Shown piece after piece: positions 42,818 through 43,252 of a stretch of 64,000 nucleotides of DNA. Source of the stretch: Escherichia coli (GTDB taxonomy: Bacteria > Pseudomonadota > Gammaproteobacteria > Enterobacterales > Enterobacteriaceae). Within the stretch, counting starts at the first letter, position 1, and each line of letters begins with the position of its first letter. The stretch is from assembly GCF_030384885.1 (NCBI RefSeq), contig NZ_CP128613.1. One strand, 5' to 3'. The notes under the pieces were generated by a model. It was given only the letters and a program-made list of their open reading frames with translations. It was not told the origin of the DNA and did no database searches. A program made the translations under genes and the position numbers.

Positions 42818-43252
42818 ACGTAAACTCTTTCCGGTTGTTGTCGATAGCTCTATATCCCTCAACCGGAAAATAATAATACCAAAATGCTTAGCGCGGCTAA
42901 TAATCGCCTAATCCAAACGCCTCATTCATGTTCTGGAACAGTCGCTCAAATGTTCTCAGGATACGCGGTTCGCTGATTTCCAGGAAATTGTCGTAATTCA
43001 GCGACCTGTCCCGTGTATCACGGGCCTGCTAATCCATCAAGGAATGCATTGCGGAGTGAAGTATCGAGTCAAGCCAGATTTCGCGATCAGGATTCTGTGT
43101 GATGATTACATTGCCAGGCCCGGGGCTGTTTAGTCATCGCCGCACAGTGCTGAGATTTCAACCTGTTGCAGGGAAAATGAGTAGATTTAGGGCAAGTGTG
43201 CTGCCAAACCCAACTTTTACGCGGGGAAGGTAGATTTCGTTGGAAGGATAAA

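Follow-up and report, generated by a model that had tools for sequence, protein, structure and literature searches.

What occupies the 435 bp between the sucrose permease gene cscB and the tRNA gene argW in Escherichia coli, and how did it come to lie there? The question is raised by a 64-kb stretch of E. coli DNA, here called the window, whose coordinates are used throughout unless another sequence is named. In the window, cscA (38935–40377, minus strand) and cscK (40584–41498) are followed by cscB (41570–42817, plus strand), which encodes a permease of 415 residues. argW, a tRNA-Arg(CCT) gene called by ARAGORN and matched by Rfam, occupies 43253–43327 on the minus strand, and beyond it lie yfdC (43403–44335, minus strand) and then mlaA. 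A sequence-only reading of the window had held that the gap contains no intact gene, and the end of cscB at 42817 and the start of argW at 43253 bear out both its length and its emptiness. According to two papers (PMC4366372 and PMC7486766, citing Jahreis et al. 2002 and Moritz & Welch 2006), argW is a recombination hot spot, and csc and dsdCX are alternative cassettes at argW-dsdA, with cscRAKB replacing dsdC and the 5′ part of dsdX. The segment belongs to this same locus and this same polymorphism; the two papers make no mention of the 435-bp piece, its DUF4942 content or the attL-like stub described below.

The frame that first drew attention to the segment is on the minus strand and reads ...AMHSLMD-stop-QARDTRDRSLNYDNFLEISEPRILRTFERLFQNMNEAFGLGDY-stop. 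The peptide quoted from it is real, as is the in-frame TAG before the open stretch, at 43029–43031. The bounds given for it, 42888–43028 or 46 codons, are in error: the open stretch has 43 codons (42900–43028), its stop is at 42897–42899, and the wider bounds also take in 'PR' and a second stop. No ATG, GTG or TTG is found in the open stretch until a Met nine codons before the stop, which explains its absence from an ORF listing with a 25-residue minimum. A stop-free run of 43 codons is unremarkable, the listing having dozens of ORFs of 25–60 residues in 6 kb. It is homology, not length, that makes the 42900–43028 stretch non-random.

The homology is to DUF4942 proteins. In a tblastn search, an intact DUF4942 protein of 281 residues matches 43133–42906 in a single frame with 55% identity over 76 codons (E 7e-21), and the alignment continues without a break across the TAG, which lies opposite an Ala of the homologue. 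A conceptual translation of 78 residues that ignores this TAG scores 31.3 bits (E 2e-7) against positions 5–62 of the 190-position DUF4942 profile (PF13708), for which the Pfam gathering score is 25 bits; the 43-residue ORF alone, at 13.9 bits, is below this cut-off. Intact DUF4942 genes, which are 87–93% identical to one another in nucleotides, share 74–78% nucleotide identity with 42914–43115. A second collinear block, 43145–43202, matches nucleotides 97–153 of the DUF4942 gene with a Smith-Waterman score of 28, against 10.1 ± 1.3 for shuffled sequences, none of 500 scoring as high. The two blocks are set apart by a deletion of ~55 nt relative to intact genes, and the reading frame is consequently shifted between them.

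The whole remnant thus measures 297 bp (42906–43202, minus strand) and corresponds to codons ~33–151 less about 18 codons. Its distal block, 42906–43115, represents codons ~85–151 of 281 and holds the homologous part of the 42900–43028 frame together with the TAG; its proximal block, 43116–43202, represents codons ~33–66 in another frame. About 100 of the 281 codons survive, and both ends of the gene are lost. Since the DUF4942 domain of intact proteins spans residues 87–275, the fragment is the N-terminal third of the domain and not its C-terminus. Where an intact domain would have ~190 positions, the segment has codons ~33–66 and ~85–151 only, in two frames and with the TAG; what is left is a fragment of a pseudogene and no member of the protein family.

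The frame had been described as the tail of a decayed gene. Decayed it is; a tail it is not, being residues ~109–151 of 281. A DUF4942 gene does not natively stop after GLGDY, as the frame does, and its C-terminal 130 codons are absent here; a C-terminal gene tail was rejected because the match covers codons 33–151 of 281 and ends at this non-native stop. The impression that the frame is not a tyrosine-recombinase C-terminus holds up, DUF4942 being the sole Pfam match above cut-off. An integrase remnant was also considered and discarded, as Pfam finds no Phage_integrase domain in the frames tested. These scans used E limits of 1 or 10, subject to what the HMMER filters report of weak matches, and the one weak match besides DUF4942 was a sub-threshold ADDT match for an O157 ORF.

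The closest intact DUF4942 relatives are 55–65% identical in protein. No closer one was found in the protein database, which has only fragments of 44–131 residues, nor among species-representative genomes, where the best is an intact E. albertii paralogue at 64%, nor was a closer intact donor found in viral contigs or in plasmid or phage collections. Full-length matches to the segment do occur in 4 of 14 plasmid and 4 of 5 phage records, which look like chromosomal DNA or prophage records with host flank; the remaining matches are paralogous DUF4942 genes. The titles and abstracts of the literature naming DUF4942 indicate no function for it, and the family has no NCBIfam model and no solved relative.

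Is the remnant still read as protein? The differences between the window allele and four other alleles are distributed over the three codon positions of the remnant as 6/6/7, 7/7/4, 5/8/6 and 5/9/6, with 12–15 nonsynonymous and 3–5 synonymous codon changes. In the same comparison, the neighboring genes give 11/3/37 (cscB), 1/3/26 (cscK), 5/5/42 (cscA), 1/0/36 (yfdC) and 0/0/28 (mlaA). Stop codons also differ, with TAG in the window and TGA at another codon in SK6988. This even spread, unlike the third-position bias of the neighbors, and the stops at different codons are the marks of neutral decay. Thus, the remnant has decayed neutrally, by the 55-nt deletion, the frameshift and nonsense mutations. 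The window allele has a further 6-bp deletion in the proximal block relative to the four others.

Annotation pipelines nevertheless call genes here. In many genomes RefSeq has an incomplete DUF4942 CDS at this very place, and PGAP calls 'DUF4942 domain-containing protein' CDSs of 60–73 residues there in O157, E2348/69 and Ec15103. The RefSeq entries of that name with 50–85 residues exist because the frames of O157 and E2348/69 happen to be open. Taken at face value, such CDSs and the protein database fragments of 44–131 residues would make the frame the gene of a small functional protein, DUF4942 cut down to an N-terminal piece. We regard this as most improbable, given that the window allele has the TAG and no start codon before the last nine codons, that SK6988 has its stop at a different place, and that the substitutions are even over codon positions and mostly nonsynonymous; further, 58 of the 190 domain positions are left, and no promoter-like site accompanies them. 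The segment is an ordinary pseudogene scar, already annotated as an incomplete DUF4942 CDS in RefSeq. The short CDSs beside cscB that RefSeq names 'DUF4942 domain-containing protein' or 'hypothetical protein' are pieces of one neutrally decaying pseudogene and are not to be counted as genes.

The part of the segment next to cscB is of another kind. The 88 bp from the cscB stop to the remnant (42818–42905) are an orphan junction, matching neither DUF4942 genes nor anything else beyond csc-positive E. coli. A MAFFT alignment hinted that they might be further DUF4942 sequence, a candidate dropped when Smith-Waterman scores proved no better than those of shuffles. They are the best-conserved part of the segment, at 92–97% identity between alleles. 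On the plus strand they contain a hairpin, 42828–42869, with a 10-bp stem (arms TTTCCGGTTG and CAACCGGAAA) and a 22-nt loop; its folding energy is -18.5 kcal/mol (z -1.8), and 7 of 200 shuffles fold as well. The tract after the stem, AAAATAATAATA, is A-rich and not U-rich. That is, the stem of a rho-independent terminator is present, the U-tract is missing, and the terminator scan makes no call.

Possibly the hairpin is a 3′-end structure of the cscB mRNA. A stronger version, compatible with decay elsewhere in the segment, has it as a working cis element that terminates or stabilizes the cscB transcript: a GC-cored 10-bp stem starts 11 nt past the cscB stop with the stability just given, it is invariant in five alleles while the loop varies, and it lies in the most conserved piece of the segment. 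The absence of a U-tract, the silent terminator scan, the modest z-score with its seven equal shuffles, the lack of compensatory changes in the stem and the lack of an Rfam match all speak against this, and we hold it to be rather doubtful. There may, for all that, be weak constraint on part of the segment, as the segment as a whole has diverged by about 9%, somewhat less than 4-fold sites (13%), and the 88 bp are better conserved.

A search for other activities was negative. In an Rfam 15 covariance search at E up to 1, argW alone passes and nothing is found within 42829–43252; the sub-threshold matches, RalA at 42664–42828 and Plastid-ycf2 over argW on the opposite strand, are chance matches. 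No promoter-like or terminator-like site is called within the segment, and its identification as an sRNA, promoter or terminator was abandoned on these grounds. A laboratory deletion in EDL933 removed 5,637 bp, from z3622 (32 bp inside) to 122 bp from the cscR 5′ end (PMC7486766). By arithmetic on the coordinates of the O157 locus record this is exactly 2994–8630, so that no part of the segment is left, in a strain that is viable (PMC7486766). We judge it probable that the segment encodes nothing and does nothing, the hairpin at 42828–42869 being the possible exception.

How widely is the scar carried? Of 5426 complete E. coli genomes, 2636 (~49%) have it, each in a single copy, and 2646 have cscB. 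In every locus inspected the segment adjoins cscB. The 143 bp on its argW side are found nowhere else in E. coli and are absent from csc-negative E. coli. The segment and the csc sucrose regulon are passed on together, as a single block. Intergenic DNA conserved in all E. coli, another candidate identity, does not fit a sequence found in 49% of genomes and always beside cscB in the loci inspected. The sequence-only reading had itself named such non-coding DNA, common to all E. coli and without a protein homologue, as the result that would tell against a gene fragment; a homologue exists, and about half of the complete genomes have the segment.

The window allele is rare, being present at 99% identity or more in 38 of the 5426 genomes, and other alleles are about 90% identical to it. 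This low identity is not special to the segment, since every gene in 34800–51300 is 3–7% diverged from mainstream E. coli (SK6988, O157, K-12); pooled 4-fold-site divergence of the neighborhood from mainstream E. coli is 13.1%. The window is probably DNA of a divergent Escherichia lineage that goes under the name E. coli; that this is a cryptic clade is a guess. All five aligned alleles agree in their two breakpoints and in the 55-nt deletion, and so the junction arose once, before the lineages split. It is at least as old as the split between the window lineage and mainstream E. coli (4-fold divergence about 13%).

The remaining 50 bp of the segment, 43203–43252 on the minus strand, lie directly 3′ of argW and have no match to DUF4942 genes. 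The homology that the locus has with csc-negative E. coli, with Citrobacter and with Salmonella does not extend past the argW 3′ end, breaking off at 43243–43255. Read from the CCA end, the 50 bp show 26/50 in-register identity with the arm next to the argW integrase of E. coli CFSAN061762, and both arms have the exact 10-mer GAAATCTACC at offset 15–24. Among 5000 shuffles, none agreed as well for the window allele and 2 did for the SK6988 allele (likewise 26/50); the similarity is confined to 50 bp and emerged after several comparisons had been made. The arms of C. farmeri and E. coli TUM1881 agree at 20–24/50, and the match to the IntS-type arm of K-12 CPS-53 is not significant. The resemblance is suggestive of a stub of an island attL arm, and to that extent it favors the earlier surmise of an old island boundary. 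Two other origins for this argW-side end were tried. An ancestral flank shared with dsdC-positive strains was rejected, the alignment with the K-12 flank being no better than shuffles, as was a flank common to other genera, since blastn homology with eight Citrobacter and Salmonella loci stops at the tRNA end.

Intact DUF4942 genes of 281 codons are the last genes of a series found in E. coli and E. albertii, as follows: Ag43, DUF932, antirestriction, RadC, DUF987, YeeU, CbtA, DUF5983, DUF957, DUF4942. This DUF4942-ending module is that of the cryptic P4-like islands CP4-44, CP4-57 and CP4-6. CP4-57 is laid out as tRNA, attL, integrase and, at the far end, DUF4942 and attR, co-directional with the tRNA. 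The remnant is on the same strand as argW, and its 5′-truncated end points toward the tRNA. The argW integrases of C. farmeri, E. coli CFSAN061762 and TUM1881 are likewise co-directional with the tRNA.

We therefore favor, as a probable account, the reading that the segment is the non-functional scar of an ancient P4-type integrative island, resembling CP4-44 and CP4-57, that once occupied argW. The steps would be as follows. A P4-type island would have inserted in argW, giving the order tRNA, attL arm, integrase, cargo, core module, DUF4942 and attR. An internal deletion, from about 50 bp past argW to DUF4942 codon ~33, would then have left argW, a 50-bp stub of the attL arm and a 5′-truncated DUF4942. 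A second event, on the far side, would have cut DUF4942 at codon ~151 and joined it via the 88 bp to the cscB 3′ end, removing the island attR. The remnant has since decayed neutrally, and later prophages insert between the segment and argW.

Comparison with intact islands shows how little is left. With the DUF4942 islands the segment shares protein and nucleotide homology over codons ~33–151 and the strand relation to the tRNA seen in the CP4-57 layout; it differs in having no DUF957, DUF5983, CbtA, YeeU, RadC and others, and in its frameshift and stop. With the argW islands that have P4-like integrases (CFSAN061762, TUM1881, C. farmeri, C. freundii) it shares variable DNA that begins at the exact argW 3′ end, and the first 50 bp, whereas integrase, distal repeat and mobility functions are missing; it is a relic, not an island. 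The ORF listing and Pfam searches of the frames tested give no integrase gene between cscB and argW. With up to three mismatches allowed, the 64-kb window has one copy of the argW core, so no distal repeat (attR) was found. Nine CP4 module proteins, compared with the window by tblastn, match the DUF4942 fragment alone. An intact argW island with the DUF4942 lineage of the segment was not found, the closest intact relatives being those at 55–65% identity. With integrase, module genes and distal repeat all missing, the island model draws on orientation, the resemblance of the attL arm, and analogy.

The analogy has one precedent. In C. farmeri CP081314 (7094–8640), a P4-like integrase gene stands next to argW and a 34-residue C-terminal fragment of RadC is all that comes after it before DUF499 and DUF1156; this locus is a gutted CP4-type island at the same tRNA. 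The argW islands of E. coli CFSAN061762 and TUM1881 have P4-like integrases, and neither has the CP4 module or DUF4942. They support argW as the target and not the exact type of island. Another arrangement was seen in islands at the tRNA gene beside mug, where an intact DUF4942 (L004, 6426–7445; L007, 9746–10766) ends about 100 bp from the tRNA 3′ end. That tRNA, presumably ileX, is annotated as tRNA-Ile in L004 and called by ARAGORN as tRNA-Met with anticodon CAT in L007. DUF4942 there converges on the tRNA, the opposite of the layout proposed for the argW relic.

A different history would make the DUF4942 fragment a passenger of csc. The csc genes would have landed in or beside the DUF4942 gene of a donor island, and a block of cscRAKB plus the fragment would later have recombined into argW; the fragment would then be uninformative about an island at argW. 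The nearly equal distribution of segment and cscB (2636 and 2646 genomes), the absence of the argW-side part from csc-negative E. coli and the truncation of the remnant at both ends all fit this history. What it leaves unexplained is the orientation, with the 5′-truncated end facing argW and the remnant co-directional with it, as expected of an argW island, and the intervening 50 bp, which resemble the attL arms of argW islands in register. Foreign csc genes speak against it as well. The closest csc cluster outside E. coli is on a metagenomic contig (ERZ794949 NODE_178, 5100–9260), with 72% nucleotide identity over cscA-cscK-cscB and a CscB that is 83% identical; homology with it ends at 42779, inside cscB, and no DUF4942 sequence lies downstream. 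This loss of homology inside cscB also disposed of the idea that csc clusters of other taxa include the segment. The surroundings of csc on the contig are unrelated (Ail/Lom, a ShlB fragment, YetF), with short traces on the cscR side and no argW. On balance we think the passenger history unlikely and retain the argW island as the preferred source of the scar.

The argW island might also have been larger than the scar. Tentatively, the whole stretch from argW to the truncated dsdX, that is, the segment and cscB-cscK-cscA-cscR, could be the remains of a single P4-type island with csc as its distal cargo, the integrase and core module having been lost in one deletion. We give this clearly less than an even chance. 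Were it true, the segment would be the fused left end and last core gene of the island that delivered csc, and the csc/dsdCX polymorphism, which is correlated with LEE carriage and D-serine sensitivity, would have begun as an integrase-mediated insertion at argW.

The replacement of dsdCX by csc and the status of argW as a hot spot are already published (cited in PMC4366372 and PMC7486766). Added here are how far the remnant extends and where inside the gene it lies, the evidence that its decay is neutral, and the attL-like stub. With these, the core of the sequence-only reading, a decayed gene remnant at an old island edge, proves right, and its C-terminal tail and ORF bounds wrong. The practical weight of this is small, a cleaner annotation for a locus that is of interest in work on sucrose use and D-serine tolerance in EHEC and UPEC. 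The scar would be the physical trace of a former CP4-type island at argW, on the csc side, and a small clue to the origin of csc/dsdCX. Its breakpoints, common to all csc-positive alleles examined, make it a handy marker.

Integration at argW has continued. In 2013C-4282, O157 and E2348/69 the segment is followed by a 15–19-nt copy of the argW 3′ end and then by prophage DNA (torI-side end), and hence the segment is the bacterial arm of the present-day attB. Segment and argW 3′ end together are that attB, and IntS-type prophages insert between them. The att core, TGGTGTCCCCTGCAG, is the argW 3′ end itself (43253–43267) and is duplicated where prophages occupy the site in other strains. pawZ and CPS-53 (KpLE1) of K-12 are comparable leftovers of integrase activity at argW, the same 15–16-nt core being duplicated with IntS-type prophages. 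They differ in that pawZ is the displaced tRNA 3′ fragment of a still-resident prophage, whereas the segment is an older bacterial-side flank that receives prophages, and the dsdC-side flank of K-12 is unrelated to it.

argW is an unusually busy integration site. Beyond yfdC-argW, the argW 3′ flanks differ in nearly every strain or genus sampled and include type I restriction-modification genes, fimbrial genes, a P22-like prophage, IS-rich O-antigen genes and helicase/TerB-type genes. Strain 2013C-4282 is 99.99–100% identical to the window on both sides of a 3.68-kb prophage remnant (8436–12113) that lies between segment and argW. This remnant has torI, two hypotheticals, a PACE transporter, a LysR regulator, a dATP/dGTP pyrophosphohydrolase-domain pseudogene and an intS pseudogene; from the window it is cleanly missing, at a 21-bp att overlap (43247–43267). 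Differences from other alleles are clustered at 43246–43252, where the window has GGATAAA before the TGGTG of argW and the common version has GGGTATC. Read from the tRNA, the window version gives TTTATC, with which the CPS-53 attL arm of K-12 also begins. These differences may be the footprint of a past integrase-mediated exchange, or coincidence.

A further observation concerns the yfdF homologue (45566–46765, minus strand), which has 399 residues in the window and in 2013C-4282 and 352 in K-12-like strains, a difference of 141 nt. A tandem repeat was considered as the basis of the longer form and given up, as Tandem Repeats Finder detected no DNA repeat. In the protein, two similar stretches of ~47 residues (…NQEP.K..AN…IVEKTHD…) are visible by eye.
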